The notes: generated from the letters alone by a model not told the origin. Positions 6,983-64,000 are shown, counted from the stretch's first letter. The stretch: 64,000 nt of DNA from Planctomycetota bacterium (GCA_965223845.1 CBDCXR010000004.1:3787334-3851333), one strand, 5' to 3'. Numbers and translations are program-made.

Positions 6983-8458
6983 ATGAGACCAATCGCCAAG
7001 ATCTCCCTGCTGCTCCTAGCGCTTGCGTGTACCCCTCAGGCGATGTCCGCGCCGAAGAAGATTCTTCTCGTCGGCACGCATCCGAGTCACGGGTACAACC
7101 AGCACGAATACCTCCACGGGAATCGCATTCTCGCGCACTGCCTGCGGCAGAACGGCGTCGACGCCGTGTCCTACAACGGCTTTCCTCCGGCGGAGGAGAT
7201 CAATGAGGCGGCGCACTTCCACCTCTTCTGCTCCTGGGGCGGCGACTTCGTGCTAAAGGATGCGGACCGCCGGGCAATCTTCCTCGCAAACATTCGCCGC
7301 GGCATGGGCTTCTCGACGCTTCACTTTGCGTGCGATATCACCCCCGACCTCGAAGACAAGGGACTCGGCGACGTCTACATGGAGGCGCTCGGGGCGTTTT
7401 ACGACACCGGGTTCTCGCGCAACCCGCACAATACGGTCACTCTTCGTCCGGCGAACGTCGGGCATCCGATTCTGAGCGGCGTGAGCGAGCTGACGCAGCA
7501 CGACGAGATCTACTTCAACCTGCGGTTCATGCCGTACACGCGTCCGGTCCTCGTCGGACGAATCAAGGATCGCGACGGCGACTTCGATCGCTGGGTCTCG
7601 TGGTGTTACGAACGTCCCGACGGCGGGCGCTCGTTCGGCTACACGGGAGCGCACTTCCACAAGACCTTCGAAGCGGAGAGTTTCCGGCGCCACCTCGTAA
7701 ACGGGATTCTCTGGTCGGCGAAAGTCGAGCTTCCCGAAGGAGGGGCGAAGGTCGACTTCGATCCCGCGTGGCTCGTTCCGCCGCGCCGGAAGGCACCGGC
7801 TGGTCGCCCCCCCGCGGGAAAGCTCCTTCCGCTGGACCGGGCGGGAGGCGACGCGGAGTGGGTGAACATCCTCACGGCCGAATCCTTTCCGCGGTGGACG
7901 CAGAAAGGTAAGGCGAACTGGAAGCTCGAAGACGGAGTGCTCACCGGAACGGGGCCGGTCGGTCACGTCTTCAGCCCGCGCGGCGACTACGCCAACTTCG
8001 AGTACGAGGCCGAGGTGAAGATCAGCAACGATTCGAACAGCGGCATGTACTTTCGTGCGGAGCTCGGCGACTCGTGGCCGAATGGCTACGAAGCGCAGGT
8101 GAACGCCTCGCACGGCGATCCCGTACGCTCCGGCAGCCTCTATCACTTCGAGAAGGTGTTCGAGAAATATACGAAAAACGACGAGTGGTTCACGCAGCGC
8201 ATCGTCGCCGCCGGAAACCGGATCACCATTTCGATCAACGGTGCTCCCGTCGTCGACGTCGATATGGACGAGAAGCTCGCCCGAGTTCAGACTCAGCTCG
8301 CCGCGGAGACGGACGCGAGAAAGAAGCGTCAGCTCGGCCGGCTCGCACAGCAGATCGACAGCTTTCGCAAGCTCGAACGAGGCCACTTCGCGTTCCAGCA
8401 GCATCACGACGGTAGCGTGGTTCAGTACCGGAACGTCCGCGTGCGCGAATTGCCCTAG
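6983..8458 (+). CDS. Secreted ThuA-like (trehalose-utilisation/type-1 glutamine-amidotransferase-like) domain fused to a DUF1080 (3-keto-disaccharide hydrolase / LamG-like) domain
   Basis: Signal peptide MRPIAKISLLLLALACTPQA. The N-terminal ThuA-like part includes KKILLVGTHPSHGYNQHEY. The C-terminal part has the DUF1080 hallmark ending GHFAFQQHHDGSVVQYRNVRV. Confidence 0.75.
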   Translation: MRPIAKISLLLLALACTPQAMSAPKKILLVGTHPSHGYNQHEYLHGNRILAHCLRQNGVDAVSYNGFPPAEEINEAAHFHLFCSWGGDFVLKDADRRAIFLANIRRGMGFSTLHFACDITPDLEDKGLGDVYMEALGAFYDTGFSRNPHNTVTLRPANVGHPILSGVSELTQHDEIYFNLRFMPYTRPVLVGRIKDRDGDFDRWVSWCYERPDGGRSFGYTGAHFHKTFEAESFRRHLVNGILWSAKVELPEGGAKVDFDPAWLVPPRRKAPAGRPPAGKLLPLDRAGGDAEWVNILTAESFPRWTQKGKANWKLEDGVLTGTGPVGHVFSPRGDYANFEYEAEVKISNDSNSGMYFRAELGDSWPNGYEAQVNASHGDPVRSGSLYHFEKVFEKYTKNDEWFTQRIVAAGNRITISINGAPVVDVDMDEKLARVQTQLAAETDARKKRQLGRLAQQIDSFRKLERGHFAFQQHHDGSVVQYRNVRVRELP

Positions 8459-9269: not shown

Positions 9270-11179
<1,910 letters not shown>

Positions 11180-11183
<4 letters not shown>

Positions 11184-11833
11184 TGCGCGCCCTCCGCGAA
11201 GAAGTACGCGTAGAGAGGAAGAGACGCGTACCCGACCGCCACGAAGATCGCGAACAGACGACCCGCGATGCGGACGAGCGCAACGCACTTCGGCTGCGAC
11301 AGGCCGAGACTTCGAAACGCGCTTTGAAACCCGTGGCTCACGTGGAGCGCGACGACGCAGGATGCGAAGACGTACCAAATCACGTAGTAGGACCCGTGGA
11401 ACTTGTCGATCACGAGATCGTACAGCGACGCGCCTTCTGCCTTCGCGAACCGGAAGTCCTTGAGGTGGAGAACGAGGAAAACGAGGACGATGATCCCCGA
11501 ATAGATCATGGTCGAGCTCGCGATCGTTCGCTCTCCGGCCGAGGCCCGAGCGACGTAGCGTACGGGGCGCGCACGACGGTTTTCGATCGTCACCCACACG
11601 GCGAAGACGATGTGGACGAGAAAGAGCGCGGCGAGGATCGCTTCCGCCGGGTAGTAGAAGAGGAGGTTCGACGTCATCGCCTCGGCGTAGGCGTCGAAGG
11701 CGTCCTTCCCGAAGAAGAGAAGAAAGTTCCCGAGGAGATGGAGAACCAAGAAGCCGCACAAGAGAAGGCCGCTCACCGCGACGCACTGCTTCTTGCCGAT
11801 GGACGAACAGAGCGTCCGAAACATCCAGGTCAT
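11180..11833 (-). CDS. sdhC: Succinate dehydrogenase cytochrome b558 membrane subunit (type B, single large subunit)
   Basis: A roughly 215-aa polytopic membrane protein with conserved His residues, lying immediately upstream of sdhA with a 4-nt overlap. I chose the start at MTWMFRTL; a nearby alternative Met lies 3 codons downstream. Confidence 0.75.
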
Positions 11834-42932: not shown

Positions 42933-44372
42933 TCAAGCGAGGAAGCCGAGAGGAGCGAAGTACCCGTCGCGATCGTCGGCCGCGAGACGCCCGTAGCCGG
43001 GAATGATCTCGCCGATCCTGGACGCCGGATCCCCGAGATGTTGCGTGAGGATCTCGTGGTAGACCGCGCGAAAATCCGTGCGGTGCGCCAGATACCGGCC
43101 GTTTGCGGTGGAGAAGAGATCGCCGTTCTCCCAGCGGTCCGGAGAACAGTTGTAGACGCCCCCGCGCACTCCGCCTCCGAGGGCGAACAGACAGGCGGCC
43201 TCGCCGTGATCGGTCCCCCCGTTCGCGTTCTGGAGCGATGTGCGGCCGAATTCCGTCAGGGTGACGATCAGGACGTCGTTCCAGATCGGCTTCAAGTCGA
43301 AGTAGAGCGCCGTGAGCGCCGCGCCGAGATCGCGAAGAAGTCGAGGAAACGCGGTGACCTGATTCCCGTGCGTATCGTAGTTCCCTTGGTTGCAGCCCGT
43401 GATCTGCAGTCCGTCGACCTGCTTGAGGAGCCGCGCGCAGTCCGCTACGAATCCCGCAAACGCTCGGTCGCTGATGGCAGCGTAGTGCGGCACGGCGTTC
43501 GGCTCCGGATCGTACGGCGCCTCGCGGACGTGAGTCTCGAAGAACTCGAGACTCTCGAGCAGGGTACGCCCGGTCGAGTAGGCGAGCGTCTCGTATGGGA
43601 TCGTCCGCGTAAGACTTCGACCGTACGCGCCCTTGAGGCCGGATCCGATCGGCGGCGCAGCGTTCGGAAACTCGCCGAGCGGCACTCCGGCGGGGAGGGC
43701 GTAGTCGGCGACGGAGCGCAAGACCGGAACGAGGGTCGGTCCCTTCATGAGAACGACTTGGTTGCCGCTGAGTGTCGCGGCGCGCATCGGGTTCGCAGGA
43801 TCAGGATACGCCGTCAGGTAGCGGTTGAACACGCCGTCCTCGCGTGTCGTCTCGCCCGGGAGGCCATTCTCCCAAAACTGCTGGCTCGAAAAGTGCGAGC
43901 GGTTCTGCTCGGCGTAGCCGACGCGGTGAAGAACAGCGAGCTGCGGCCCGCGTTCGTCGAGCCGACCATGAAAGATATCAGCGAGCCGCGGTGCGCCGTC
44001 GCCCGACTCATCGACCGTCGGGTAGAAGTGAGCGAATCCGTTGAGATCGTGCGTCCGCGCCCGGTCCGGACGGAGCTGTGGACGTGCCTCCTCGAACGTC
44101 GGCGCACGCCCGGAGATCCCGGGGTCGCCGTAAGGAATCACCGCCTGGACGCCGTCGAGTCCTCCGCGAAGGAAGATGAAGAGGATCTTCTTCCGCCTCC
44201 CGGCGGGATCGACCGCCGCTGGCTCGCCCGCAAGAGCCGTACCGATCGTCCGGTGAAAAGGCGCCGGAACGCCGAAGCCCAACGCGGCGAGAGACGCCGC
44301 ACTCCAGCGGCAGAATCTGCGCCGACCGAATCGACGAAGCGGATTCCAGATTCGTTCTTCAGATGAATTCAT
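42933..44372 (-). CDS. DUF1501 domain protein (sulfatase-like, TAT-exported)
   Basis: Twin-arginine signal RRFGRRRFCRWSAASLAALGF and conserved DUF1501 regions (FLRGG.DG, GG.DHG). ATGA overlap with the DUF1800 gene stop at 44369-44372. Confidence 0.85.
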   Translation of the reverse strand: MNSSEERIWNPLRRFGRRRFCRWSAASLAALGFGVPAPFHRTIGTALAGEPAAVDPAGRRKKILFIFLRGGLDGVQAVIPYGDPGISGRAPTFEEARPQLRPDRARTHDLNGFAHFYPTVDESGDGAPRLADIFHGRLDERGPQLAVLHRVGYAEQNRSHFSSQQFWENGLPGETTREDGVFNRYLTAYPDPANPMRAATLSGNQVVLMKGPTLVPVLRSVADYALPAGVPLGEFPNAAPPIGSGLKGAYGRSLTRTIPYETLAYSTGRTLLESLEFFETHVREAPYDPEPNAVPHYAAISDRAFAGFVADCARLLKQVDGLQITGCNQGNYDTHGNQVTAFPRLLRDLGAALTALYFDLKPIWNDVLIVTLTEFGRTSLQNANGGTDHGEAACLFALGGGVRGGVYNCSPDRWENGDLFSTANGRYLAHRTDFRAVYHEILTQHLGDPASRIGEIIPGYGRLAADDRDGYFAPLGFLA

Positions 44373-46798
44373 TGGAGCTGAAATTGAGGCAAACTAGCGA
44401 GGAATGCGGTCACGGCGCGGACGCGATCGACGGCTCCCGCTTCGCGGTAGATCTCGAGCGCGAGCTCGCGATGCTCGACGGGGAGGGCTTGGCCGTGGAG
44501 GAGGAGCGCGAAAAACTCGACCACTCGCTCCCCGCTGTCGAGCGCCCACTGCCGCTGAAACGAGAGCGGATTCCACACGAACCGCCGATCGGCCGGAGAC
44601 CCGGGGTGGATTCCGCGGCTGAGATACTTGAGCCGCTCGAGGAGTCCGATCGTGTGCATCCAGTCGAAGCCGAGCTCCGACTCCCCCGTCGGATCGGCGA
44701 ACTCGAAGAGCTCCATTCCCGCGAGAGTGAGCTCTCGCGACGCGCGAATTCCGTCGTTGACGCTCAAGCCTCCGTCTAGCGCCCGTACCGCGCTCACAAT
44801 CGTCTCGAGCGGTGTCTTTACCTTGGCGCAGGCGTACTCGAGGCTCAGGAACTCGTCCGAGCGAAGGATCGTCCGCACGACCTCGCGCAAGTCTCCGTTC
44901 GAGTGCGCCCACGCGTCGATGACGTCGACGAGAAGATCCGGCTCTTGGTACTCGCGCGGAGAGATTCGCTCGTCCGCGTTCGTGTCGAGTCGGCGAAAGA
45001 CCGCGAGCGGTCTCCCATTCGGAAGAACGAGCGGGATCGGCATCTCCCACTCGTCGAGATCGAGCAATCCGTCACCATCGGAATCGACGCTCTCGAAGTG
45101 CGCAGCGAGCTCGGCGCGGAGAGGGTATGTGCGAGGAAGAGCGGAAAGATCGTCCGTCACGAAGAGCTGGATCAGCTTCGTTCCGACGAACTTCGCCGTG
45201 TCGCGGAAATGCGCGATTCGTCGCAAGACGAGGTCGAACTCCTCGACCGCCCGCTCCGGCGTCCGCTGATCTTCGTTGGCGGGAATCGTGAGCGCCGCCC
45301 GCGGCGGAACGGGGTTCCCGAGCGAGTCGACGCCCCCGTAGCGCGGGAGGAACAGATCTTTTCGCCCCCAATCGTGGCCGCCGTCTCGGAGTCCGGGATG
45401 GCCGAACGCGAAGGCCCACACGTACGTCCCGTCGTCCCAATTCGCCCGCGCCGGGAAGGCAAACGGCCGAGGCTCGCGCCCATCGATCGGGAATCGCGGG
45501 AGGTCGGGCTGGTCGTGAAAGCCGATGTCGTGCGGAAAAAAATGCCGCCGCTCGACCCACGCGACCGTCCAGCCCGTAAGGATGCGCGAGAGCTCCTCGA
45601 TGTCGCGCTGAGTGTACAGATGGTCCACGCCGAGCGTCGACAGCTCAAGCACTTCGCGCGCGTAGTTCTCATTCGGGGCTGCGGCGGTATTCTCGAAGCC
45701 GTTCAAGTAGATGAGCATCGCAACGCTCTTCGCCGAACCTTCGACGAGATCCGCAAAGCTCCCGAGCGCGTGACGCCGAAAGTACTCGTACTCTCGGCGC
45801 TCCATGTCCGCGGCGACAGCGAGCTGAGCGGCGCCGGTTCCGTACTTCCAGTACGCGACCGGAGCGAACTCGAACTCGGCGGGACTCAGCGTGCCGTCGG
45901 CCGTCGAGCGACCGAACTCCGCGAAGCTACGCACACCGGGATGCGCCGCGCGAAACTCACTCCACTCGCCGGCGTCGATCGTGCCGGAGCCGTCGCCATC
46001 GACGTGCCGAAACAGCTCCGCCGAACCGCGCGCGGCGACCCCCCCGCGTCGCATCCGTCCAAAAAAGAGGTCGCGGAGGGTCGTGATCTGAGTGTGAAAG
46101 TGGTTGTTCCAAAACAGCGCGAGGACGTGGAGCAGCTGCCACCGGCTCGAACGCGCGTTTTCGATCAGCATCGCTTCGAGGCGCTCGATGGGCGCGCCCG
46201 ACACCGGATCGCGAAAGCCGATGCGGAGACGATCGATGCGCTGCGCGAGCTCGGGTTCGTGGCCGACCGGATCGTAGTCGACCGGGGGGCGCAGCTGATC
46301 CTCGATATACCGCTCGAGATCGGCGCGCGTTTGAATCCGGGCGAGCAACTCCTCGTTTGGGCCGAACGTGATTCTTCTCAGTGCATGAGCGATGAGCGCG
46401 GTGTCGTCCGGGCACAGCTCGTACTTCGAGCAGCCTAGGTACCCAGAGTTGCGATCGACGCCGCAGGCGACCGGCCCCGGAGGAGCGGGCGGTGGCAGGT
46501 CGCCGAAGAGATGGCCGAGGAGATAGAGCGCATCGGAAATGTCGACGCCATCGTCGTCGTTCGCGTTGGCGGCTTCGACGCACGTCCCGCGACGGCTCTC
46601 CGCGAAGAGTGCGTTCAACACGAAGATCGGATCGGCGACGTTGACCGCACCGTCTGCGTTGGCGTCGCCGCGGCGAAACTGAACCCGGCGAACGAAGGAA
46701 TCTCCGAGCGTCGCGACCAACGGAAGGAGCGTCAAGCAGGTGACGCGCGCCGCGACCGCCAACCCTCCCCCGAACATCCTCTGTCGCTGCTCGCGCAT
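44369..46798 (-). CDS. DUF1800 domain protein with an N-terminal dockerin-like double Ca-binding repeat
   Basis: DUF1800 signature NENYAREVLELSTLGVDHLYTQRDIEELSRILTGWT. The N-terminus has RGDANADGAVNVADPIFVLNALF...ANDDDGVDISDALYLLGHLF followed by PPPAPPGPVACG. Start at MREQRQRMFGGGLAVAARVTCLTLLPLVA. Confidence 0.8.
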   Translation of the reverse strand: MREQRQRMFGGGLAVAARVTCLTLLPLVATLGDSFVRRVQFRRGDANADGAVNVADPIFVLNALFAESRRGTCVEAANANDDDGVDISDALYLLGHLFGDLPPPAPPGPVACGVDRNSGYLGCSKYELCPDDTALIAHALRRITFGPNEELLARIQTRADLERYIEDQLRPPVDYDPVGHEPELAQRIDRLRIGFRDPVSGAPIERLEAMLIENARSSRWQLLHVLALFWNNHFHTQITTLRDLFFGRMRRGGVAARGSAELFRHVDGDGSGTIDAGEWSEFRAAHPGVRSFAEFGRSTADGTLSPAEFEFAPVAYWKYGTGAAQLAVAADMERREYEYFRRHALGSFADLVEGSAKSVAMLIYLNGFENTAAAPNENYAREVLELSTLGVDHLYTQRDIEELSRILTGWTVAWVERRHFFPHDIGFHDQPDLPRFPIDGREPRPFAFPARANWDDGTYVWAFAFGHPGLRDGGHDWGRKDLFLPRYGGVDSLGNPVPPRAALTIPANEDQRTPERAVEEFDLVLRRIAHFRDTAKFVGTKLIQLFVTDDLSALPRTYPLRAELAAHFESVDSDGDGLLDLDEWEMPIPLVLPNGRPLAVFRRLDTNADERISPREYQEPDLLVDVIDAWAHSNGDLREVVRTILRSDEFLSLEYACAKVKTPLETIVSAVRALDGGLSVNDGIRASRELTLAGMELFEFADPTGESELGFDWMHTIGLLERLKYLSRGIHPGSPADRRFVWNPLSFQRQWALDSGERVVEFFALLLHGQALPVEHRELALEIYREAGAVDRVRAVTAFLASLPQFQLQ

Positions 46799-46975
46799 TC
46801 GAGTTTCGTCTCTCGCTTCGCCGGCCGATGGCACCGGTGATCTAACCGCGCATCCTCCGTCTTTCTTGTACCCGAGAACGATCTCTCGTGCGCCTCCGAA
46901 CCGCGCGCGACCTTGGCTCGGGTCGGAACTCGTGAGACGATGGCGAGAACGAAACGGCTCCGAGTTCCATCGACA

Positions 46976-53150: not shown

Positions 53151-53400
53151 GCTCTAATTCTATCCCGGACCGCGCGGGAGTTTCTACTCCGCCGCACGTT
53201 TCTCGGCGGACGCGGGCTGGGCCGGCTCGGTTTCGCGCGCGCCCCGGGCAGCGCGCCGCGATACGATGCGCTCGCGGTCGATTTCCGACCGATCATAGGC
53301 CCCACCCACTCGAAATCGACGAGCTCCCACGATGCCGTTTCTCCCTCGACGTCGACCCGACGAACGTGTGCGCAGAGATCGAACGCCGCACGCATACACG

Positions 53401-56085
53401 ATGTCTCCCTCCTCGATCGCGTTTCCACTCGTCGCCGGCGTGCTGGTCGCGAAACTCGCGTTCGGAGACCCGACCGCCCTCCCTCTGGACCGCGGCGCCG
53501 CGGGACTCGAGCGCGCGCTGAAGCAGCTCTCGACGACGGCGAGCGTTCTCCACGTCGTCGCCCACCCCGACGACGAAGACGGCCCGCTCCTCACCTACCT
53601 CGCGCGCGGGCGCGGTGTGCGTACGATGGCCCTCTCGCTCACACGCGGTGAAGGCGGCGCAAATCTCATCGCACCGTATTTCTTCGATGAGCTCGGCGTC
53701 CTTCGCACGCTCGAATACCTCGAGGCGAATCGCTACTACGGCGTCGAACAGTTCTTCACCCGCGCCGCAGACTACGGGTACTCGAAACAGCTCTCCGAAG
53801 CCCAGCGCAAGTGGAAGGGATCCGAGATCCTGCTCGAGGACATGGTTCGCGTGATCCGCCGCGAGCGCCCGGACGTCGTGATCTCGCGCTTCTGGGGCGG
53901 GCGGAGAGACGGTCACGGTCACCACACCCTCGCGGGTGTCCTCACGCCGGAGGCCTGCGCCGCCGCCGCGGATCCGGAACGCTTCCCCGATCAACTGCGC
54001 GAAGGGCTCTTTCCCTGGCGAGTGAAGAAGCTCTACCGCGGGAACATCCGCCCCGAGCGCCGCGCGGAGGACGCGGAGGCGTGGACGGTGAAGGTCGATG
54101 CGGGCGAGTACGATCCCCTCCTCGGGGCGTCGTACTACCAGATCGCGCGCCGGGGCTACGGTTTCCATCGCTCCCAGGGGATCCTCCATCACGACGGTCG
54201 CGCCGGCAGCCGCGTCAGCCACTACCAGCTCATTCCGGCCGACTCGGACGAGCGCGTCGTAGAGGAAAGCCTGTTCGACGGCCTCGATACGACCCTTCGC
54301 GGTCTCACCGAATACTGGAGTGGCGAGACTCCGGCTTGGCTCGTCGACGGACTCGATCGGACTGCGGACTGGATCGCCTCCGCCCGTTCAGAATTCCGCG
54401 CGGACGATCCGCCGCGTATCGTTCCCCCGCTCGCGAACGCGCTGCGCTCGGTGCGCTCGCTCTCGAGTCAACTCTTCGACACGAGCTCCGGCACGCCCGA
54501 AAGCCATCGCGAGATCGCACGGCACCTCGCGCGGAAGGAACACGAACTCGAGCGCGCGCTCAGCCTCGCGCTCGGAATCGATCTCGAGGCGGCCGCGGGG
54601 AGAGACTCGCTCACCGGTTCGTCGCCCTTCTCACGCTCGAGCACGTTCGCCCACGCGACCCCGGGACAGATGTTCGACGTCGGTGTACGCCTCGTGCATC
54701 GCAGCCGCGTCCCGGTCGAGTTTCTGAAGGCGACGCTGAGCCTACCTCCGGGTTGGAGCTCGATGCTTCGAGACGCGACTCCGCCCGACTCGAATCTCGC
54801 TTACAACGGCGAAGCCCGGGCGAAGTTCAGCGTCGCGGTACCTTCCGCAGCATCGCCCACCCGACCGTACTGGCGACGCGCATCGATTTCCGACGCGTTT
54901 TACGACGTCGTCGATTCGCTCGCGACGCTGCCGTTCGCCCCGCCGCCGGCGTCCTGCCGCGCGACGATTCGCGTCGCCGGCGTCGAGGTCTCGGTCGACA
55001 CTCCGGTCCGCCTCGTCCTTCGCGATCCGGGGCTCGGGACTCGCTATCCGCCGCTCGCCGTCGCGCCACCGGTCAGCGTTCGATTCGCCGAGGGCGCGGG
55101 GATCCTGCCGCGCGGCAGGACGCGCTACGAGCTCACCGTGACCGTCCGCGGCGACGTCGCGGGCGGCGCATCGGGCGACGTGCGCCTCCAGGTCCCCGCC
55201 GGCTGGTCCGTCGAACCGGCGAGTGCGCCGTTTCGATTCGATCGCGAGGGCGCCGAGTCGACGCTCCGCTTCACGCTCTCGGCGCCGACGGAGCCCGCCG
55301 GCGAACGGTACGAAATCCGCGCGATCGCACGCCACGCGGACCGTGAGTACTCCGAAGGCTACCGGACGATCGAAGCACGCGACGTCGGCCGCTACGATTA
55401 CTATCTACCCGCGATTCACCGAGTGCGCGTCGTCGACGTCAACCTCGCGAACGACCTCGCCATCGCTTACGTGACGGGTTCCGGAGACGACATTCCGCAG
55501 AGCCTCCGTTTCCTCGGAATCGCGCCGACGCTTCTCGATTCCGAGACGCTCCAGAGCGGTGACCTCGATCGCTTCGACGCGATCGTCGTCGGCGTTCGGG
55601 CCTACGCGGTCCGAGAAGACGTCCGCCGCGTCAACTCGCGCCTCCTCGGCTACGTCGAACGCGGCGGCGTCCTCGTCGTTCAGTACCAGACGCCCGAGTT
55701 CGATCGAAACTTCGGCCCGTATCCGTATTCGATGGGACGCGCCGAAGAAGTGAGCGAGGAAGACGCCGCGGTCCGCATCCTCGCCCCGGAACATCCGCTT
55801 TTCACACAGCCGAATGCGATCGCCGCCGCCGACTTCGACGACTGGGTTGAGCAGCGCGGCTCGAAGTTCTGGGCGACCTGGGATGAGCGATACACACCGC
55901 TTCTCGAATGCCACGACGAAGACCAGGAACCACAACGCGGCGGGATGCTCTACGCACGCTCCGGAAAGGGCGCATACATCTACAGCGCGTACGCATGGTA
56001 CCGCCAGCTTCCCGCGGGAGTTCCCGGTGCGTTCAGGATCTACGCCAACCTGCTGTCCCACCGGAGAACTCTCGAGTCTCGCTAG
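53401..56085 (+). CDS. PIG-L/LmbE-family N-acetylglucosaminyl deacetylase domain protein with a roughly 600-aa C-terminal extension
   Basis: HVVAHPDDEDG motif (zinc-binding HPDDE). The far C-terminus resembles a class-I glutamine-amidotransferase-like domain (DAIVVGVRAY...GGVLVVQYQ). Start at MSPSSIAFPLVAGVLVAKLAFG. Confidence 0.75.
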   Translation: MSPSSIAFPLVAGVLVAKLAFGDPTALPLDRGAAGLERALKQLSTTASVLHVVAHPDDEDGPLLTYLARGRGVRTMALSLTRGEGGANLIAPYFFDELGVLRTLEYLEANRYYGVEQFFTRAADYGYSKQLSEAQRKWKGSEILLEDMVRVIRRERPDVVISRFWGGRRDGHGHHTLAGVLTPEACAAAADPERFPDQLREGLFPWRVKKLYRGNIRPERRAEDAEAWTVKVDAGEYDPLLGASYYQIARRGYGFHRSQGILHHDGRAGSRVSHYQLIPADSDERVVEESLFDGLDTTLRGLTEYWSGETPAWLVDGLDRTADWIASARSEFRADDPPRIVPPLANALRSVRSLSSQLFDTSSGTPESHREIARHLARKEHELERALSLALGIDLEAAAGRDSLTGSSPFSRSSTFAHATPGQMFDVGVRLVHRSRVPVEFLKATLSLPPGWSSMLRDATPPDSNLAYNGEARAKFSVAVPSAASPTRPYWRRASISDAFYDVVDSLATLPFAPPPASCRATIRVAGVEVSVDTPVRLVLRDPGLGTRYPPLAVAPPVSVRFAEGAGILPRGRTRYELTVTVRGDVAGGASGDVRLQVPAGWSVEPASAPFRFDREGAESTLRFTLSAPTEPAGERYEIRAIARHADREYSEGYRTIEARDVGRYDYYLPAIHRVRVVDVNLANDLAIAYVTGSGDDIPQSLRFLGIAPTLLDSETLQSGDLDRFDAIVVGVRAYAVREDVRRVNSRLLGYVERGGVLVVQYQTPEFDRNFGPYPYSMGRAEEVSEEDAAVRILAPEHPLFTQPNAIAAADFDDWVEQRGSKFWATWDERYTPLLECHDEDQEPQRGGMLYARSGKGAYIYSAYAWYRQLPAGVPGAFRIYANLLSHRRTLESR

Positions 56086-56261: not shown

Positions 56262-58388
56262 TCACTCGCCCGCTTTGTCTTCGCTTCCCTCTTCGGACGA
56301 CTCGGAGTCCTCGTCCTTCTCCTTCTCCGGAGCGTACTCGAGCTCCGGAGCCGGCGGTTCACCGCCGTCGCCTTTCAAGTAGTGCTCGAACCACCGCAGC
56401 ATCCGCAGGTGGTAATCGAAGCGCGCCGCCGACTTCCGGTTGCCGTGGCCTTCTCCCGGATAGAGGACGAGGCGCACGGGTGTCTTCCCGAGATGGCGAA
56501 GGTGACGGTAGAGCTCCATCGACTGGCTCGGATGGACGCGGGTGTCCTCTTTACCGTGGAGAATGAGGAGTGGCGTGCGCGACTTCTCGACGTGGTAGAT
56601 GGGACTTCGTTCGAGGAACCATTCCCAATTGCCGTAGAGTTTCTTTCGCGCGTGGACGAGGAACATCTCGTTCGGGATGTCCGTCGTACCGAACTTCGAG
56701 ATTTGATCGCTGATACCGACGAACATCACGCCAGCCGCGAAGCGCTCGGAGTGATAGGTCGAGCACCACGCCGTCGCGAAGCCGCCGTAGGACCCGCCCG
56801 TGACACCGACTTTATCCTTGTCGACGAGTCCGATCGAAACGAGGTGATCGACGGTGTCGACGAGGTCGTCGAACTCCTTCCCCGCGTAGTCACTCTGGCC
56901 GAGCTTCGAGAACGCGACTCCGCGTCCCGTACTGCCGCGGTAGTTGGGGTGGAACACCGCAAAGCCGCGTGCCGAGGCGACCTGACCCGGTCCCGAGTAG
57001 AACGATGTCCACCCGTTTCGATCGTGAGCCTCGGGTCCACCGTGAACGCGAAGGATCAGCGGGTACCGTTCGCCCTCTTTCTCGTCGAGCGGTCGAATCA
57101 GGATCCCCTCGAGCTCGAGACCGTCGCGCGCTTTGTAGCGGACGATCTCCTGCTTCGCAAAGCGCATCGCGTCGAGCCAGTCGTTGCTCGTCGTCAAACG
57201 ACGCGGCGATTCTTCCGATGTCCGGAGCGCAAAGACCTCATTCGGGTACTCGGGATGACTCGAGAGGAACGCGATGCGCGAGCCGTCGCGCGAGATCGAG
57301 AGATCGGACGCGACGAGCGATCCCTTCTCGACGAGCACACGCGGCTTCTCGGCGTCGATGTGATACTCGCCGATCGAGCACGTCGCCCCGACCGAGGCGA
57401 TGTAGCTCACGGTGAAGTCGTCCTTCCAAACGATCGCGTCAAAGTCGCCCTCTCCCGGAAACGGAAGCTGCTTCGGCGCGCCGCCGACGGCGGGTACGAC
57501 CATGAGTCGCCCGGCGTTCGGATCGTGGATGTCCTCGGCCGAGAGAAACGCGAGCTTCGTTCCGCTCGGATTCCAGGCGAGGGGCCCGAGCTTCCCCGGC
57601 GTGTCGAAGACGGCGAAGACTTGCGCCGACTCGACGTCGACCACGTGGATCTTTCGCTTCATGAACCAGTCGTCGATGAGCGGGGTCGGCGCGATCGTGA
57701 GCGCGAGGCGGTCGCCGCGCGGCGACCAGTGAAGATCGGACGGGAATCCCTCGATCTCGAGCGCTCGCGGCTCATCGTCGCTGTTGATCGAGCCGACGAG
57801 GACGCGCGTCGGGCGAAACTCTTCTTCGTAGATCTGCTGATTGAAACCCTTCTCGACGAGAGACTTTCGATCGTCGGCGACCGGGTCGGTCGCGATGAAC
57901 GCGACGCGCTTCCCGTCCGGACTCCACGAGTAGGACGCTATGTCACTCTTATGAGAGAGAACCTTGCTCGCCTCACCACCGTCGATCGGGATGACGTAAA
58001 GACTTCGGTGAGCGTCTTTCCCGCGTTTCGCGAGAAACGAAATTCCGGTTCCGTCGGGCGTCCACTCGACTTGACCGACGCTCACTTCACCGCTCACGTA
58101 CGGTCGCGAAGTGCCGTCCGCGCCGATCACGTGAAGCTCGGCCCACGACGAGCCGGACGGCTCGGCGACCGGCGTTCTCGGGACGCGGAGAACGTACGCG
58201 ATGCGCTGCCCGTCCGGCGCGATCCGCGCGGACGAGACCATGCGGAGCTTCGCCACGTGCTCGGGAGTGAACACCTCGCCGGCGGAGTCGTTCGCGACCG
58301 GAGTGTCCGAGTCGTCCGCGGCGACGGCGAGAGTGGCGATGCTGGCGAAGAGCGCGGCGGACGCAACAAGCACAGTACGTTCGTTCAT
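56262..58388 (-). CDS. S9 family serine peptidase (prolyl oligopeptidase / acylaminoacyl-peptidase-like) with N-terminal beta-propeller
   Basis: GGSYGG nucleophile motif, catalytic Asp/His region (LILHGKEDTRV, EGHG), and a signal peptide MNERTVLVASAALFASIATLAVAADD. Confidence 0.9.
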   Translation of the reverse strand: MNERTVLVASAALFASIATLAVAADDSDTPVANDSAGEVFTPEHVAKLRMVSSARIAPDGQRIAYVLRVPRTPVAEPSGSSWAELHVIGADGTSRPYVSGEVSVGQVEWTPDGTGISFLAKRGKDAHRSLYVIPIDGGEASKVLSHKSDIASYSWSPDGKRVAFIATDPVADDRKSLVEKGFNQQIYEEEFRPTRVLVGSINSDDEPRALEIEGFPSDLHWSPRGDRLALTIAPTPLIDDWFMKRKIHVVDVESAQVFAVFDTPGKLGPLAWNPSGTKLAFLSAEDIHDPNAGRLMVVPAVGGAPKQLPFPGEGDFDAIVWKDDFTVSYIASVGATCSIGEYHIDAEKPRVLVEKGSLVASDLSISRDGSRIAFLSSHPEYPNEVFALRTSEESPRRLTTSNDWLDAMRFAKQEIVRYKARDGLELEGILIRPLDEKEGERYPLILRVHGGPEAHDRNGWTSFYSGPGQVASARGFAVFHPNYRGSTGRGVAFSKLGQSDYAGKEFDDLVDTVDHLVSIGLVDKDKVGVTGGSYGGFATAWCSTYHSERFAAGVMFVGISDQISKFGTTDIPNEMFLVHARKKLYGNWEWFLERSPIYHVEKSRTPLLILHGKEDTRVHPSQSMELYRHLRHLGKTPVRLVLYPGEGHGNRKSAARFDYHLRMLRWFEHYLKGDGGEPPAPELEYAPEKEKDEDSESSEEGSEDKAGE

Positions 58389-58734
58389 GACGATTCGTTT
58401 CCGTCGAAAGACAAGCACACCCGCAGAGCGGCGGACAAAACTCCCGCTCTGGTTGCTGGTGCGCGCAAGATCGGAGGCGCCGCCCGCATCGGAGGTCGGG
58501 TTCCGGCGCACGAAGACCATCGGATTTCGAGACCCACGGTCACGATGACCGCGCGCTTCTTCCGGGTCAACCGATTCCTAGCGTCGGCATCAGCGGGCGC
58601 GATCTTCGGCGCGGGAACGTCCAAAGCGCCGGGACGGGGTTTTCGGAACGAGCTCCACTCGTCCGGCCGCCCGCGCTTCAGCCGGACGGGGGCGCGGCGG
58701 AGAAACTGTCCGAAATCCCGACGAACGGGCCCTC

Positions 58735-59991
58735 TCAGTCCTTGGGGCGGAGCAGCGCCAGCGCACGCGCGGCCGCGGCGGCTCGAGCTCCGCCTCGCGC
58801 CGACTCCGCACGAAAGAGCGCGACGACGTCCGCTCGGTCGACGCCCTTCGTCCTCGGCTCGATACCGCCGAGGAGACGGACGACGTACGCGACTTCGTCG
58901 TCCGATTCACTCGCGCCGGCCAGCTCGAGGAGCCGAGCGATCGCGGGATCGTCGCCGCGCCGAGCGAGGACCCAGAGGATCCGCCGGCGCTCGTCCGCAT
59001 CCTTCGCCTCGCGAGAGCGCGCGACGAGCGCCGCGGTCATTCGCGGTCCGGGGAGCAGCACCGCCGCCTCGAGCGCGGCGCCGCGGATCTGGCGATTCGC
59101 ATCGCCCGTCGCCGCCGCGATGCGCGCGATCTCACTCTGGAGACCCGCGCGCGCGAACCCGATGAGCGCCGCGCAGTGCTCGGCGATCCCGAGGCTCGTC
59201 GCTCGATCGTAGATGCGACGCGCCGTCCCGCGCTCGGAGTTCGCCACGAGACTGTCGGCGAGCCGAAGATACGCCCGGCGAACGCGCAGGTGATCGATCC
59301 CCTCGGTCGTGCGGAGCGCCTCCTCGAGGACGCTAACGGACGAAATCTCACCGATGAGTGCGAGCGATTCGATCGCGACGAGGCGAACTTCCCGATCCTC
59401 GTCGCGCGCAGCTTCGAGCAGGTGCTGAACGGCCAGCGCGTCCTTGCGCAGTCCCATCGCTCGGAGGACGCCGAGTCGCAGATTCCCCGTCGCGCCCGAG
59501 AGCGCATCGCGGAGCGCCTTCTTCACGGTGACGACAGGGATCCGTTCGAGCGCACGCCGCGCGGCTTCGCGGACGGCCGCCTCGCCGTGCCCGCCGAGGA
59601 TCGACGCGAGCGGCCGCACGGATTCGTACTTTCCCAGTCGTCCGATCTCCTCGATGAGCGCGACGCGAGCCCGGAGCGGAAGCTCCGCCTCGAGGGCGGC
59701 GAGGGCGGACTTGACGAACTCACGCCTCGCGCCATCCGCACCGGGGCGTCCGCTCTCCGCACTCGCACGTTCCAGCCGGTCCGCACCGCGCGCAAACTCG
59801 CTCGGCTCTTCGCTCGCAAGCTGCGAGACGATCGCAGCGAACGGCGGCGGATCCTGGGCGCGAGCTCCGTCGGCGAGGAATGCAAGCGCGAACGGGATGA
59901 TCGACAAGAAGATCGGCAGCGCACGCGACGGCGCGAACGGTCTCGACCGGCGCGCCAGCGCGACGACAAGGAAACAGGCGTTCGAATTCAT
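58735..59991 (-). CDS. HEAT/PBS-lyase-like repeat protein (membrane-anchored or secreted)
   Basis: Repeated Ala/Leu/Arg-rich HEAT-like units (E.R..AA.AL..IG) and an N-terminal hydrophobic segment LPIFLSIIPFALAFLA. Confidence 0.6.
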   Translation of the reverse strand: MNSNACFLVVALARRSRPFAPSRALPIFLSIIPFALAFLADGARAQDPPPFAAIVSQLASEEPSEFARGADRLERASAESGRPGADGARREFVKSALAALEAELPLRARVALIEEIGRLGKYESVRPLASILGGHGEAAVREAARRALERIPVVTVKKALRDALSGATGNLRLGVLRAMGLRKDALAVQHLLEAARDEDREVRLVAIESLALIGEISSVSVLEEALRTTEGIDHLRVRRAYLRLADSLVANSERGTARRIYDRATSLGIAEHCAALIGFARAGLQSEIARIAAATGDANRQIRGAALEAAVLLPGPRMTAALVARSREAKDADERRRILWVLARRGDDPAIARLLELAGASESDDEVAYVVRLLGGIEPRTKGVDRADVVALFRAESARGGARAAAAARALALLRPKD

Positions 59992-60026
59992 GGTGACGAG
60001 CTTCTAGTGGCGAGAGCGATCGACGA

Positions 60027-61253
60027 CTATATCTGGTACGGAGCCCGCATCGGACGGTCGAGCCAACGCGAGGCCGCTTCGTCGTCGACGATTTCTTCCT
60101 TGGCCGGATCCCAGCGGATCGTGCGACCGAGCCAGATCGCGATGTTCGAGAGATGACACACCGTGACCGAGCGCGCGCCGATTTCGACGTCGGCGACCGG
60201 CTCGTCGCGCGTGGTCATGCAGTTCCACCAATCGCGATGGTGTCCGGGGCTCCGGTAGAGTTTCACCGCCGGACTCGCGAGCTCGGCTCCGAGCTCCGCG
60301 GGATCCGCCGCGAATTTGCCGCGGTTCACGGTGATCGAGCCGGCCGACCCGACGAACTTGACCCCGTCGGCCGCTACCTTGCCGCAGCGCACCGTGACAC
60401 CGTTCTCGTAAACGATCGTCACGTACTCTTTTCCAGATTCGGGCGGGCGAACCTCTACCGGTCCGCTGCGCTCGTACCCGAGACCCCATTGCGCGATGTC
60501 GAGATGGTGAGCTCCCCAATCGGTCATCGTGCCGCCGGAAAACTCGCGGTACGCCCGCCAGCTCCCGGGGTGGAGCTTCCGATTGTAGTCACGCCACGGC
60601 GCGGGTCCGATCCAGCGGTCCCAATCGAGTCCCGATGGTACCGGCTCGGCGGGGAGGCGACAGGGTCGCGACGATCCCCATACGCTCACGAGGACTTCCT
60701 TGACCGCTCCAATTCGACCATTTCGAACGAGCTCGCAGGCGCGATGGAACTCCGCGCCCGAGCGCTGCTGACTCCCGACTTGAACGACGCGAGCGTAGCG
60801 ACGCGCGGCGTCGACCATCTTTCGTGCCTCGACGACGGTGAGGCTGAGCGGCTTTTCGCAGTAGACGTCCTTCCCCGCTTCACACGAGTGGATCGCCGGA
60901 AGCGCGTGCCAGTGATCGGGCGTCGCGATGACGACCGCGTCGACGTCCTCCCGGTCGAGGAGCGCGCGATAGTCGTTCGTCTTGAAACACGCCGAGCCAA
61001 CGCGGGCGGCGGCGGCGTCACGCTTCGACGCGTCGACGTCGCAGACCGCGACCGACGGGTGGGACTTGCTCGTCGCATATCGGCCGAGGTGTCCGTTTCC
61101 CATGCCGCCGACACCGATGTGTCCGATTCCGACGCGCTCGTTCGCATCGGGACGAAACGCCGTCCCGATGGCCCCTGGACGAGCGATCGCCGGAGCGACG
61201 AGTCCGGCTCCGAGCGCGCCTAGGAACGAGCGACGACTGACGCGCCGAGACAT
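60027..61253 (-). CDS. Gfo/Idh/MocA-family NAD(P)-dependent oxidoreductase with a twin-arginine signal (GH109-like/inositol-dehydrogenase-like)
   Basis: TAT motif SRRSFLGALGAGLVAPAIA, Rossmann GIGHIGVGGMG, ATPDHWHA and EKPLSLT motifs. The 84-aa extension was trimmed. Confidence 0.85.
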   Translation of the reverse strand: MSRRVSRRSFLGALGAGLVAPAIARPGAIGTAFRPDANERVGIGHIGVGGMGNGHLGRYATSKSHPSVAVCDVDASKRDAAAARVGSACFKTNDYRALLDREDVDAVVIATPDHWHALPAIHSCEAGKDVYCEKPLSLTVVEARKMVDAARRYARVVQVGSQQRSGAEFHRACELVRNGRIGAVKEVLVSVWGSSRPCRLPAEPVPSGLDWDRWIGPAPWRDYNRKLHPGSWRAYREFSGGTMTDWGAHHLDIAQWGLGYERSGPVEVRPPESGKEYVTIVYENGVTVRCGKVAADGVKFVGSAGSITVNRGKFAADPAELGAELASPAVKLYRSPGHHRDWWNCMTTRDEPVADVEIGARSVTVCHLSNIAIWLGRTIRWDPAKEEIVDDEAASRWLDRPMRAPYQI

Positions 61254-61868
61254 CGCGATCCTCCGAGCTGGTTTCGGTCGAGATGAGCCGCGCCCGCGTC
61301 GCGTCACATCGCCATCGAGCTGAAGCGAGCCCCGCGCGCGGAGGAACCGAACGACCGCGAAGGCAGCAACAGCGGTAAATCGAGAACGTAATCCCAGGAA
61401 AGGATAGTCCACCGTGCGCGCGATGACAGCTCTCTCGTCCGTTCGATTTGTCGATTCCGGCGTGCTGAGACGGGCGCTGCGCTTGTGTTCGACGAGACTC
61501 GGCACGGGGCGATTCGATTTAGCCGGGAACTAGCGCGTTCGCTCTCCTCCGACAAACAACGGACGAATCCTCCCCGGCTCGAGACGCGAGGCGCGAACGG
61601 GACGACTCCCGATCGGGCGAGCCGTGAGACGGGATCGATACCGCTTTCGCCCACGGATGCTCTGTCGTGAATCCGCGACGATCGTCTGGAAACACGTGCC
61701 GTTCGGTTCGCGATGCCGACCGATGTCCCTCGTTTTCTGACGGCGAACCGATTCGCGCGCGGACCCCCAGCTCACGACTCGTGTTCAGGCGACCGAACTC
61801 TTAGCTCGATCGCGCTCCGAGGCCGGTAGAATGACGCGCAACGAGAATCCACTGAGCGAGGTATCAAG

Positions 61869-63143
61869 ATGGCAGAACGCTCGACCCGACGGCGGTTTCT
61901 AAAGCGCGCGGCGCAGATCGGAGCGGCCGCGAGCGCACCGGCGATTTTTCCGCACGGAATGCTCGGTGCGGCATCGCCGAACGAGCGCATCGTCACCGGT
62001 CATATCGGCGTCGGCGGCATGGGCACGGGACAGCTCCGCGGCTCGTTTCTTCAGAACGCGGGGGCGATTTGCGATGTCGACGAAAACCACCTCCGCCGCG
62101 CCGCTCGTCTCGTCGGTCGGTACGTCCCGCTCTACCGCGACTTTCGCGAGCTCCTCGACCAGCGTGACATCGACGGCGTCGTCGTCGCGACGCCCGATCA
62201 CTGGCACGCAGTGCAGACTGTCTACGCGTGCGAAGCGGGAAAGGACGTCTACTGTCAGAAGCCCCTCAGCCTCACCGTCGAAGAAGGGCTCAAGATGAAA
62301 GCCGCCGCGGATCGCTGCGGGCGCATCATCCAAGTCGGCTCGCAGGGACGCTCGACGCGCGCCGCGTACAAGGCCTGCGGTTACGTTCGGAACGGACAGA
62401 TCGGCCGCGTGAAGGAAGTGCGCTGCTGGCACTACGCCAATCCCGTCGGGGGCTTCAAACCCGACGAGCCGCCGCCTCCGCACCTCGACTGGGATCTCTG
62501 GCTCGGTCCGGTTCGCTACGTGCCCTACAACGTCGACCGCTGTCACTTCAATTTTCGTTGGTTCCTCGAGTTCGGTGGCGGACAGATCCGCGACCGCGGC
62601 GCGCACGTCATGTCCGTTGCGCTGTGGCTGCTCGGCGCCGACACGCAGCCGCTTCACTCGGTCGAAGCAACGGGAACGGCTCCCAAGGAGGGCATCTGGG
62701 ATTGTCCCGTCGACATGGAGGTGAAGTACGAGTTCAAGGACCCGGACTGGACGATGTACTGGCTCCAGCCCGGCGAGCCGCAGCGCGGTGCGGGCTACGG
62801 CGCGACGTACCTCGGGGAGAAGGGAAACCTCATCGTCACCGGAGGAGACGGCGGCTGCGGCACCGAGGAAAAAGCGATGCAGTACACTCCGCCCTCCGAT
62901 GGAGTTCAGCCGTACAAGAGTCCTGGTCACGAACGCGATTGGCTGAATTGCATGAAGACGCGGGAGAAGCCGATCATGCACATCGACGCGGGTCTCGCGG
63001 TCGCCAATCTGTGCATTCTGGGGAACATTTCGTACATCCTCGGACGCGAGCTCCGGTGGGATGCCGAGACGAATCGTGTGATCGGTGACGCGGAGGCGAA
63101 CCGGATGCTCGCTCGGCCAAATCGCACGCCGTGGCGGATTTGA
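61869..63143 (+). CDS. Gfo/Idh/MocA-family oxidoreductase with a twin-arginine signal (paralogue of 60027..61253)
   Basis: TAT motif TRRRFLKRAAQIGAAASAPA, Rossmann TGHIGVGGMG, ATPDHWHA and QKPLSLT motifs. Confidence 0.85.
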   Translation: MAERSTRRRFLKRAAQIGAAASAPAIFPHGMLGAASPNERIVTGHIGVGGMGTGQLRGSFLQNAGAICDVDENHLRRAARLVGRYVPLYRDFRELLDQRDIDGVVVATPDHWHAVQTVYACEAGKDVYCQKPLSLTVEEGLKMKAAADRCGRIIQVGSQGRSTRAAYKACGYVRNGQIGRVKEVRCWHYANPVGGFKPDEPPPPHLDWDLWLGPVRYVPYNVDRCHFNFRWFLEFGGGQIRDRGAHVMSVALWLLGADTQPLHSVEATGTAPKEGIWDCPVDMEVKYEFKDPDWTMYWLQPGEPQRGAGYGATYLGEKGNLIVTGGDGGCGTEEKAMQYTPPSDGVQPYKSPGHERDWLNCMKTREKPIMHIDAGLAVANLCILGNISYILGRELRWDAETNRVIGDAEANRMLARPNRTPWRI

Positions 63144-63147
63144 GGAG

Positions 63148-64000
63148 GGACGGACCATGAGATACCACGCACTCGCGATCGCGATCGCCACCTCGCTGCT
63201 CCTCGCCGCTGCCTCCCCGATCCGCGCGGAGACTCCCGCCACCGAAACCGTCCCCGATCCGGCGGCCGACCGCGCCGTCGCGAAGCTCGTCGAACAGGTC
63301 ACATCGGACGACAAGGACGTCCGCTACGCCGCTCGATCGGCGGCGCGTACGCTCGGGGCGCGGGCGATCAACCCGCTCGGCCGGCTGCTCGAGCACGAGA
63401 GCCGCGAAGTTCGGATCACGGCGCTCCGAGCGCTCGAGCAGATCGTGCATCACGCCGGTCGACCTGGTGCGGCTCGAGAGGCGCTCGCGGCGAGCCGGTC
63501 GTTGGCTCGGGTCGTCCGCTCGGACTCCCCGCAGTGGGTGAAGCTCGAGCTTCTCAGTCTCGTCGCGCACATTGGCGGGGACGCGATCGTTCCCCGCGTG
63601 AGCGGCTTCCTCCACGACCCCGATCCGCACGTCCGCGAGACGGCGCGCCTCGCCCTCGAGCGCATCCCAACGCGCGCGGCGAGCGGAGCTCTCATTCGCG
63701 CGGTGCGCGAATCGACCGGCGCAGATCGCGTCGCGTTTCTGTTCTCGCTCGGGAAGAAGCGTGACCCCGCGCTGACATCGTTTCTCCTCAGTCAGGCGTA
63801 CGACAGAGACGAAGAGGTCCGCCTCGCCGCACTCCGCGCGCTCGCGCACGCCGGTGCGCCGGAGGCTCAGCCGGCGTTTCGAGACGAGATCCAGCGCTCG
63901 GAGTCTCACGAGCGCGCTCAGCTGTTCGGAGAACTGCTCCGTCTCGCCGACGAGCTCGCAGACGCGGGTCGCTCGGGCGTCGCACGCCACCTGTTCGGCG
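63148..64000 (+). CDS. HEAT-repeat protein, 5' portion (runs off the window end; absent from the ORF track because it has no stop)
   Basis: ATG at 63148 preceded by GAGGAGGG. Signal-like MRYHALAIAIATSLLLAAASPIRA, then HEAT-like repeats (VRYAARSAARTLG, VRITALRALEQI, VRETARLALERI). Confidence 0.6.

Follow-up and report, generated by a model that had tools for sequence, protein, structure and literature searches.

Why should two oxidoreductase genes of the Gfo/Idh/MocA family, each with a twin-arginine translocation (Tat) signal, stand back to back in a planctomycete genome, each followed by a gene for a HEAT-repeat protein? The question is raised by positions 58735-64000 of a 64,000-nt stretch from a Planctomycetota bacterium (GCA_965223845.1 CBDCXR010000004.1:3787334-3851333), here called the window. 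The genes are located exactly where a preliminary description of this DNA had placed them, with the last one running off the window end:

58735-59991, minus strand: HEAT1, 418 amino acids, an exported PBS-type HEAT-repeat protein, the partner of Gfo1
60027-61253, minus strand: Gfo1, 408 amino acids, a Tat-signal Gfo/Idh/MocA oxidoreductase with the N-terminus MSRRVSRRSFLG
61254-61868, no strand: divergent intergenic spacer of 615 bp between Gfo1 and Gfo2
61869-63143, plus strand: Gfo2, 424 amino acids, a Tat-signal Gfo/Idh/MocA oxidoreductase with the motif TRRRFLK
63157-64000, plus strand: HEAT2, of which the first 281 amino acids fall within the window, with the signal-like N-terminus MRYHALAIAIATSLLLAAASPIRA

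The layout is thus HEAT1(-) Gfo1(-), spacer, Gfo2(+) HEAT2(+), so that on either side of the spacer Gfo comes first and HEAT second. Gfo1 and HEAT1 are separated by 35 nt and Gfo2 and HEAT2 by 13 nt that include a GGAGG sequence, and with such short gaps the two pairs look like two operons. Both have the form of what we call the cassette: a gene for a Tat-signal Gfo protein, followed on the same strand by a gene for an exported HEAT protein with a common N-terminal module.

The same pairing is found in many other genomes. An exact-match look-up with the HEAT1 protein gave no record, but a similarity search with HEAT1 returned a few close relatives of 332-438 amino acids and a number of HEAT proteins of about 700 amino acids with around 30% identity, and on every one of the first contigs examined, the HEAT gene lies immediately 3' of a Gfo/Idh/MocA gene. 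One locus, L001, was seemingly reversed; its first 70 bases in fact encode the C-terminus of a Gfo1-type gene. The relatives belong to three types (see below), whose HEAT proteins differ too much for one joint alignment to serve as the query in a wider scan; genomes were scanned with the third type, HEAT3, and metagenomes with Gfo2-type sequences. When the alignment of the ~700-amino-acid HEAT3 type was run against one genome per GTDB species, relatives were found in 271 species, mostly Planctomycetota (Pirellulales, Phycisphaerae and Sedimentisphaerales), Verrucomicrobiota, Lentisphaerota and Kiritimatiellia, with a few in Abditibacteriaceae and Aegiribacteria. Eighty of the 271 loci were fetched, 77 of them with enough upstream sequence to be assessed, and in 73 of the 77, a same-strand Gfo gene lies immediately upstream of HEAT. 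The background is 23 other Gfo genes in 593 kb of flanking sequence, or 0.039 per kb.

The reverse scan, of metagenome contigs with an alignment of Gfo2 orthologues, was divided at 44% identity to Gfo2. Among relatives with at least 44% identity, a HEAT gene is adjacent in 39 of 45 loci, immediately downstream in 36 and immediately upstream in three; the remaining six were checked, and four of them have an unrelated downstream gene by Pfam. Below 44% identity, which is to say in another Gfo subfamily, none of the 17 assessable loci has a HEAT neighbor. The linkage is therefore specific to certain Gfo subfamilies and not a by-product of HEAT genes being common. Conservation of the neighborhood had been set as a check in the preliminary description, and the counts from both scans go well past what that check asked for. 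The exported oxidoreductase and the exported solenoid are a two-gene unit that is co-inherited across phyla without a further companion gene: no Pfam family occurs in more than six of the 59 genes found downstream of HEAT. We have high confidence that Gfo and HEAT form one functional unit. The cassette is also carried by a cultured organism, Novipirellula herctigrandis CA13 (locus L011). In three metagenome loci (L124, 4373-6283; L127, 2749-4695; L129, 5374-7323), HEAT is immediately upstream of a Gfo2-type gene, with adjacency held and the order reversed.

The Gfo proteins have the two domains expected of their family: the Rossmann domain GFO_IDH_MocA (PF01408; 6.7e-23 and 82.1 bits in Gfo1, 8.7e-16 and 59.1 bits in Gfo2, with a gathering cut-off of 24 bits) and the C-terminal domain GFO_IDH_MocA_C2 (PF19051; 1.6e-27 and 97.1 bits, 1.4e-22 and 80.9 bits, cut-off 23.3 bits). 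Both have a twin-arginine motif of the form S/T-R-R-x-F-L followed by a hydrophobic stretch, SRRSFLG in Gfo1 and TRRRFLK in Gfo2, which bears out the Tat signals described previously. An RR motif is present in 57/62 HEAT-linked Gfo open reading frames (ORFs), and the Gfo proteins of L003 and L068 match TIGR01409. Gfo1 and Gfo2 are thus predicted to be Tat-exported, cofactor-loaded periplasmic enzymes. An identical Gfo1 protein is also called on a contig of 7.87 Mb.

The nearest characterized relatives of these enzymes are glycoside 3-dehydrogenases. For all Gfo1, Gfo2 and Gfo3 proteins tested, the top NCBIfam model is BT_2158_fam (NF058561, an equivalog model for glycoside 3-dehydrogenase), at 128-176 bits. 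Gfo1 scores 170.3 bits and Gfo2 176.3 bits with a cut-off of 750, so that these proteins are relatives and not equivalogs. The best PDB matches for both are 8tdf and 8tdh (E = 1e-34 to 1e-36), with 8tdf at 3.4e-34 for Gfo1 and 3.1e-36 for Gfo2. Structures 8tdf, 8tdh and 8tdi presumably come from Nasseri et al., Nature 2024, which reportedly deals with a related Alistipes/Bacteroides pathway. GFOR structures (1ofg and 1h6a) match Gfo1 at about 1e-12 and Gfo2 at 1e-5 to 1e-6. The preliminary description had suggested glycosidases of family GH109. However, the GH109 structure 6t2b matches Gfo1 marginally (1.9e-7), across residues 20-182 of the Rossmann part, and is outscored by about 50 other Gfo structures; Gfo2 does not match it at E ≤ 1e-5 in the PDB sequence search. 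These comparisons do not support a GH109 identity and point to the glycoside 3-dehydrogenase type.

The partner proteins are α-solenoids of HEAT_2 repeats (PF13646), which Pfam finds above the gathering score in both HEAT1 and HEAT2 (2.6e-22 in HEAT2). HEAT1 and HEAT2 align collinearly with 30% identity across 189 amino acids (E = 2e-12) and have a common non-repeat signature, (A)YLRLAD..x..GxxGxARxxY. The absence of significant similarity between them had been named beforehand as the result that would speak against a duplicated pair; the similarity is significant, and with the two Gfo proteins 40% identical (175/435, E = 6e-93), the proposed paralogy holds for both genes of the pair. Both HEAT proteins begin with a hydrophobic, Sec-like signal, and a hydrophobic N-terminus is present in 75 of the 77 HEAT ORFs of the fetched loci. 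The part common to all HEAT partners is an N-terminal module of about 280 amino acids. HEAT1 of the window is a C-terminally short form, while its orthologue in L089 has 891 amino acids and ends in a W-W-L-I-G-P domain, as HEAT2-type proteins do. L002, L087 and L089 each have, after a Gfo2 orthologue, a HEAT2-type gene with 45-47% identity to HEAT2 itself, and the HEAT2 orthologues have 699-742 amino acids including the C-terminal W-W-L-I-G-P domain. This domain has no Pfam match, and PDB sequence searches with one sequence and with a profile gave nothing significant; the top non-significant matches are a sialate O-acetylesterase (0.066) and the sugar-binding regions of GH2 enzymes (0.29-0.68). 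An hhalign comparison with the rhamnosidase-N-like module of L068 (see below) gave a probability of 2%. The C-terminal domain of the HEAT2 type and of the full-length L089 HEAT1 looks like a β-sandwich.

The HEAT partners contain no CxxCH, no cysteine cluster, no His-Glu motif and no other cofactor motif. Positions that are invariant across the three HEAT types are structural: V, L, A and G, together with the R/D that belongs to the consensus of the repeat. Against the NCBIfam models for CpcE/F bilin lyases and NblB, the window proteins score 17-30 bits with cut-offs of 220-330, and all NCBIfam HEAT-type models, including CpcE and NblB, stay at or below about 54 bits (about 30 for the window pair) with cut-offs of 75-1196. 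In the databases, these partners go by the names “HEAT repeat protein”, “DUF1080 domain-containing protein” and “family 16 glycoside hydrolase”. Many HEAT3-type partners also have a small module with a weak, sub-cut-off similarity to DnaJ-like_C11_C (DUF3395; Pfam E = 3e-4 and 9e-5) and the motif ...YG...GDPAPG..K.L.V.Y..., seen for instance in P0009 (636-708), P0011 (450-514) and the HEAT ORF of L057. It is C-terminal in some HEAT3-type proteins and inserted into the middle of the repeat array in others.

In a large sister group, the HEAT partner carries a second domain, DUF1080, for which glycan-cleaving activities have been reported. Three loci (L068, 2563-5679; L079, 1073-4327; L084, 4609-7857) encode, immediately after Gfo, a single protein of 1038-1084 amino acids that combines DUF1080 (3keto-disac_hyd, PF06439; E = 9e-38), a β-sandwich and HEAT repeats. 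The middle module is akin to the N-terminal β-sandwich of α-L-rhamnosidases (NCBIfam E = 3.5e-27). When a fusion protein was used to query a collection of 5.8 billion proteins, 104 of the 120 best matches had both PF06439 and HEAT_2; they are mostly of about 830 amino acids and come from Verrucomicrobiota, Phycisphaerae and Flavobacteriaceae. In L171 and L173, such a DUF1080-HEAT gene lies immediately after a Tat-signal Gfo3-type gene, and it likewise directly follows a Tat-Gfo gene in L172, whose contig end truncates that upstream gene. DUF1080 lies at the C-terminus in L171 and L172 but at the N-terminus in L173. Stand-alone DUF1080 genes flank the pair in six further loci (L066, L086, L082, L140, L143 and L050), and the pair is found beside GH116, GH78 and GH31/melibiase genes in other genomes, as in L173, with its GH116 and GH78-like neighbors. 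A search of a literature library for Gfo-HEAT pairing and for DUF1080-HEAT fusion found no description of either, which agrees with the earlier remark that a conserved HEAT partner was not a described arrangement.

The L068, L079 and L084 fusions are nearly identical, with 81-85% identity between the aligned middle modules, in bins labeled Kiritimatiellia, Planctomycetaceae and Victivallales. Such near-identity in differently labeled bins points to mis-binning or to recent transfer across phyla. The window has a fusion of another kind at 6983-8458(+), a 491-amino-acid protein made from ThuA (trehalose utilization) and DUF1080 (Pfam 6.1e-16 and 8.4e-33), which by its domains would be a further link to 3-keto-glycoside chemistry in the same genome.

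How old, then, is the mirror-image layout of the window? The preliminary description took it for an inverted duplication of a two-gene module, which the relationships of the two pairs do not support. Gfo1 has very many relatives at 50-77% identity, compared with 40% to Gfo2. An identity matrix separates the pairs into three types in which the Gfo and HEAT groupings are congruent. Within types, identities are 63-72% for Gfo and 41-59% for HEAT in Gfo1+HEAT1, 74-85% and 42-47% in Gfo2+HEAT2, and about 68% and 42% in Gfo3+HEAT3; between types, they are 29-40% for Gfo and 23-35% for HEAT. Judging by these values, the HEAT partner evolves much faster than the Gfo enzyme. In a midpoint-rooted neighbor-joining tree of 54 Gfo proteins, which without bootstrap is indicative only, Gfo1 groups with the Gfo3 type and not with Gfo2, while the Gfo2 type stands apart, beside a HEAT-less clade; three HEAT-less members nested inside the Gfo2 type in the same tree suggest that HEAT was lost secondarily there. 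The closer relatives of Gfo1 elsewhere, the matched types and the tree together indicate that the cassette was duplicated as a unit long ago, and the two window modules are old paralogous lineages placed back to back, not the products of an inverted duplication of recent date.

Outside the window, the head-to-head order HEAT2(-) Gfo2(-) followed by Gfo1(+) HEAT1(+) is kept in five loci, which represent four independent cases: L002, L087/L088, L089 (from a 9.18-Mb genome) and L092. Gfo2 orthologues in L002, L087 and L089 are 74-85% identical, and L092 best matches the Gfo2 of L087, at 74%. The layout is absent in L090, L093, L095 and L139, and its presence in some relatives and absence in others makes it a trait of one small clade. 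In the close relatives, synteny also reaches one gene past the cassette, since there is an S9 peptidase gene after HEAT1 in L002 and an S15/S9-type peptidase gene two genes downstream in L001; the window has a gene for an S9 prolyl-oligopeptidase-type peptidase with a PD40 propeller at 56262-58520(-). The Gfo1 orthologue of L002 (about 3772-5002) is split between two reading frames near 4118-4137, with two tblastn pieces and a called ORF of 265 amino acids, either through an assembly error or because it is a pseudogene. An extracytoplasmic function (ECF) sigma factor gene follows immediately after the HEAT2-type gene in L087/L088 (L087, 614-1195(-)), and a DUF6807 gene immediately precedes Gfo in L174 (2724-3638(+)). 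These are possibly lineage-specific additions to the cassette.

The spacer between the two pairs had been described as unusually long and low in GC, with nothing but Arg-rich shadow ORFs, and as a possible seat of a shared bidirectional regulatory element or a small RNA. Its ORFs are indeed only short, Arg-rich shadow ORFs. Its GC content is lower than that of the flanking genes, but the dip is small (0.629 vs. about 0.65-0.69), and its length is not exceptional, as a crude, GC3-filtered gene call gives gaps of 392-1059 bp at several other places in the window. The search for a regulatory element or RNA was negative throughout: there is no Rfam match at E ≤ 1 and no sigma-70-like site in a promoter scan, RNA folding is no better than that of shuffled sequences on either strand (z 0.30 and +1.99), and the spacer has one terminator-like hairpin, with 0.7 expected, and only short repeats at chance level. 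Spacer length varies from 615 to 449, 257 and 439 bp in the four mirror loci measured. An alignment of the window and L002 spacers has no conserved block, although the flanking Gfo2 proteins are 85% identical, and the four spacers have no k-mers in common above shuffled expectation. From its sequence, the spacer is most plausibly an ordinary divergent promoter region that evolves quickly, presumably holds both promoters and may also contain a short operator.

What the pair does can be approached through the closest known system, the BT2156-BT2160 route of Bacteroides thetaiotaomicron (Liu et al. 2021, PMC8121099). There, the Tat-exported Gfo protein BT2158 is proposed to make periplasmic 3-keto-disaccharides with the help of a tightly bound NAD(P), and these are cleaved by the DUF1080 hydrolase BT2157 (PMC8121099). 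The two systems are alike in their Tat-signal Gfo dehydrogenase, and BT_2158_fam is the best model for Gfo1-Gfo3. In the Bacteroides route, Gfo is functionally coupled to a DUF1080 3-keto-disaccharide hydrolase and no HEAT protein is reported in the operon (PMC8121099), whereas a HEAT solenoid is the invariant partner here and DUF1080, unlike in that operon, is fused to the solenoid in other lineages and absent from the window locus. The window pair also differs in having no isomerase/epimerase-like gene and no SusR-type regulator beside it.

We consider it slightly more probable than not that the pair consists of a periplasmic Gfo enzyme with pre-bound NAD(P) and a non-catalytic α-solenoid partner or scaffold, engaged in a 3-keto-type breakdown of glycosides, and our confidence in this 3-keto scaffold model is moderate. 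Gfo would bind NAD(P) in the cytoplasm and be exported in a folded state via Tat, for which GFOR and BT2158 are the precedents. In the periplasm, it would then be limited to redox-balanced chemistry on sugars or glycosides, most likely the oxidation of a glycoside at C3. HEAT, a Sec-exported, PBS-type α-solenoid, would itself be non-catalytic and bind Gfo through the conserved N-terminal module, providing a platform for substrate binding or for the step that follows oxidation; it could position a cleavage domain, as in the DUF1080 fusions, or a binding module, such as the C-terminal domain of the HEAT2 type. Short forms like HEAT1 of the window might only stabilize or localize Gfo. Cleavage of the glycoside could possibly be supplied in trans, for example by the ThuA + DUF1080 protein of the window. 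The physical association of Gfo and HEAT, the substrate and the 3-keto mechanism are the parts of this model that we infer; the sequences themselves show the gene content, the paralogy, the export signals, the strong adjacency confined to certain subfamilies, the domain fusions and the nearest enzyme relatives.

A stronger form of the model, which we put forward tentatively and rate below an even chance, is that the Tat-Gfo proteins of these subfamilies are obligate two-subunit periplasmic enzymes, with HEAT as a docking “scaffoldin” that has repeatedly been given DUF1080 or binding modules. If true, this would amount to an unrecognized architecture, widespread in Planctomycetota, Verrucomicrobiota and allied phyla, by which glycans are broken down oxidatively.

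Several observations weigh against the 3-keto scaffold model. The adjacency and the fusions point to a shared function of Gfo and HEAT, not to contact between them. The BT_2158_fam scores of 170-176 bits are low relative to the 750 cut-off and the alignments with 8tdf/8tdh cover only the N-terminal ~220 residues, which makes the proposed substrate and regiochemistry tentative. Pfam finds no PF06439 in HEAT1 or in the 281 amino acids of HEAT2, nor is there any in the full-length HEAT2 and HEAT1 orthologues that were checked, and the nearest DUF1080 gene, at 6983-8458, is 50 kb away. With gene number estimated, DUF1080 genes account for only about 1% of ORFs across the flanks that were fetched, which may be near the background in these phyla. 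Two glycan-cleaving activities have been reported for DUF1080, that of a 3-keto-disaccharide hydrolase (PMC8121099) and that of a promiscuous endo-glucanase/xanthanase from the planctomycete Thermogutta (PMC10881899), and the latter means that a DUF1080 fusion is no proof of 3-keto chemistry. Finally, the C-terminal domain of the HEAT2 type stays without a family assignment after the Pfam, PDB and hhalign searches.

Other explanations have to be weighed with these points in mind, beginning with the arrangement itself. Gfo and HEAT genes are both expanded in Planctomycetota, and one HEAT repeat can be aligned with another in many registers, so that two abundant families might meet by chance and the HEAT-HEAT similarity be merely that of the repeats. 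The counts of 73/77 and 39/45, set against none of 17 control-subfamily loci and only 0.039 background Gfo genes per kb, together with a collinear HEAT alignment that includes the common non-repeat signature, make this probability close to negligible. A recent local inverted duplication, with a shared bidirectional regulatory element or small RNA in the spacer, would account for the mirror symmetry of the four genes, and the divergent layout in the five further loci does suggest co-regulation. Yet Gfo1 and Gfo2 are a mere 40% identical, each has far closer orthologues elsewhere and they are not sisters in the tree, while the spacer is unconserved in sequence and length and has neither an Rfam match nor excess structure, so that we regard this, too, as very improbable.

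The rivals that concern function share the fold and export of the enzyme with the 3-keto scaffold model. GFOR of Zymomonas mobilis is the founding Tat-exported member of the family, with a non-dissociable NADP, and combines the same fold with cofactor-loaded export and redox-neutral periplasmic chemistry (cited in PMC8121099). The pair could by analogy be a sugar-sugar oxidoreductase for osmoprotection or sugar interconversion, with HEAT as a regulator, stabilizer or envelope anchor. The match at 1e-12 and the lack of any catalytic addition to HEAT1 and to the part of HEAT2 within the window would fit this, as would the genes around the window pair, which are not carbohydrate-active enzymes. 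GFOR is, however, a far weaker match to Gfo1 and Gfo2 than 8tdf/8tdh and has no known partner protein, and the HEAT partner is recurrently fused to DUF1080 or the rhamnosidase-N-like module and has GH116, GH78 and GH31/melibiase neighbors elsewhere, which makes a GFOR-like role unlikely. Slightly less likely again is that Tat-Gfo is an NAD-dependent glycoside hydrolase that oxidizes, eliminates and re-reduces in one active site in the manner of the GH109 α-N-acetylgalactosaminidases, with HEAT as a substrate-binding accessory. GH109 enzymes share the Gfo/Idh/MocA fold, carry a signal peptide and bind NAD+ tightly; such a mechanism would be redox-neutral, as periplasmic chemistry requires, and 6t2b is at least detectable for Gfo1. 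That similarity is confined to the Rossmann part and absent for Gfo2 at the threshold used. The top-scoring family model and structures are those of dehydrogenases, and the DUF1080 fusions, which give the partner a cleavage domain of its own, speak for cleavage at another active site. We know of no HEAT partner for GH109. The solenoid might instead be the active component, either as an electron-transfer or cofactor partner that re-oxidizes the bound NAD(P)H or as a lyase-like enzyme comparable to CpcE/F or DOHH. The periplasmic 3-ketoglycoside dehydrogenases ThuA/ThuB and LacABC likewise pair an oxidoreductase with a second protein of unclear role to form 3-keto-disaccharides; those systems are described as cytochrome c-dependent (PMC8121099). 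The Gfo-HEAT pair has no linked cytochrome, and ThuA does not belong to the HEAT proteins. The PBS-type HEAT scaffolds (CpcE/F bilin lyases, NblB, E. coli YibA and the PP2A A subunit) are cytoplasmic, while the HEAT proteins here are exported, genetically tied to an oxidoreductase and far under the NCBIfam cut-offs for those scaffolds. With no heme-type, cysteine or His-Glu motif and with invariant positions that are structural, an active role for HEAT is improbable.

The enzyme family, the logic of Tat export and the 3-keto route are already known, and the pair is not a new principle. Apparently undescribed are the near-obligatory HEAT partner, the three co-diverging types and the frequent fusion to DUF1080. 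Planctomycetota and Verrucomicrobiota are major degraders of complex glycans, and Tat-signal Gfo/Idh/MocA genes are among their most expanded and least understood families. To our knowledge, oxidative 3-keto cleavage of glycosides has been worked out recently, and only in Bacteroides. The pairing would give a functional handle on hundreds of unannotated “HEAT repeat protein” genes, and a partner that is nearly always present, evolves faster and often carries a second 3-keto enzyme would suggest that the Gfo enzymes act in complexes. The Gfo-HEAT pair could also be used as a simple genomic marker for such loci.

Other genes of the window include an 838-amino-acid flavoprotein (9270-11786(-); FAD_binding_2 and Succ_DH_flav_C) with an N-terminal extension of about 236 amino acids without family assignment. 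At 42933-46834(-), there are adjoining DUF1501 and DUF1800 genes, the DUF1800 one with EF-hand motifs, a pairing that is common in Planctomycetota. Closer to the cassettes, at 53332-56085(+), is a gene for a 917-amino-acid PIG-L (LmbE-like) de-N-acetylase with an NPCBM-associated domain.

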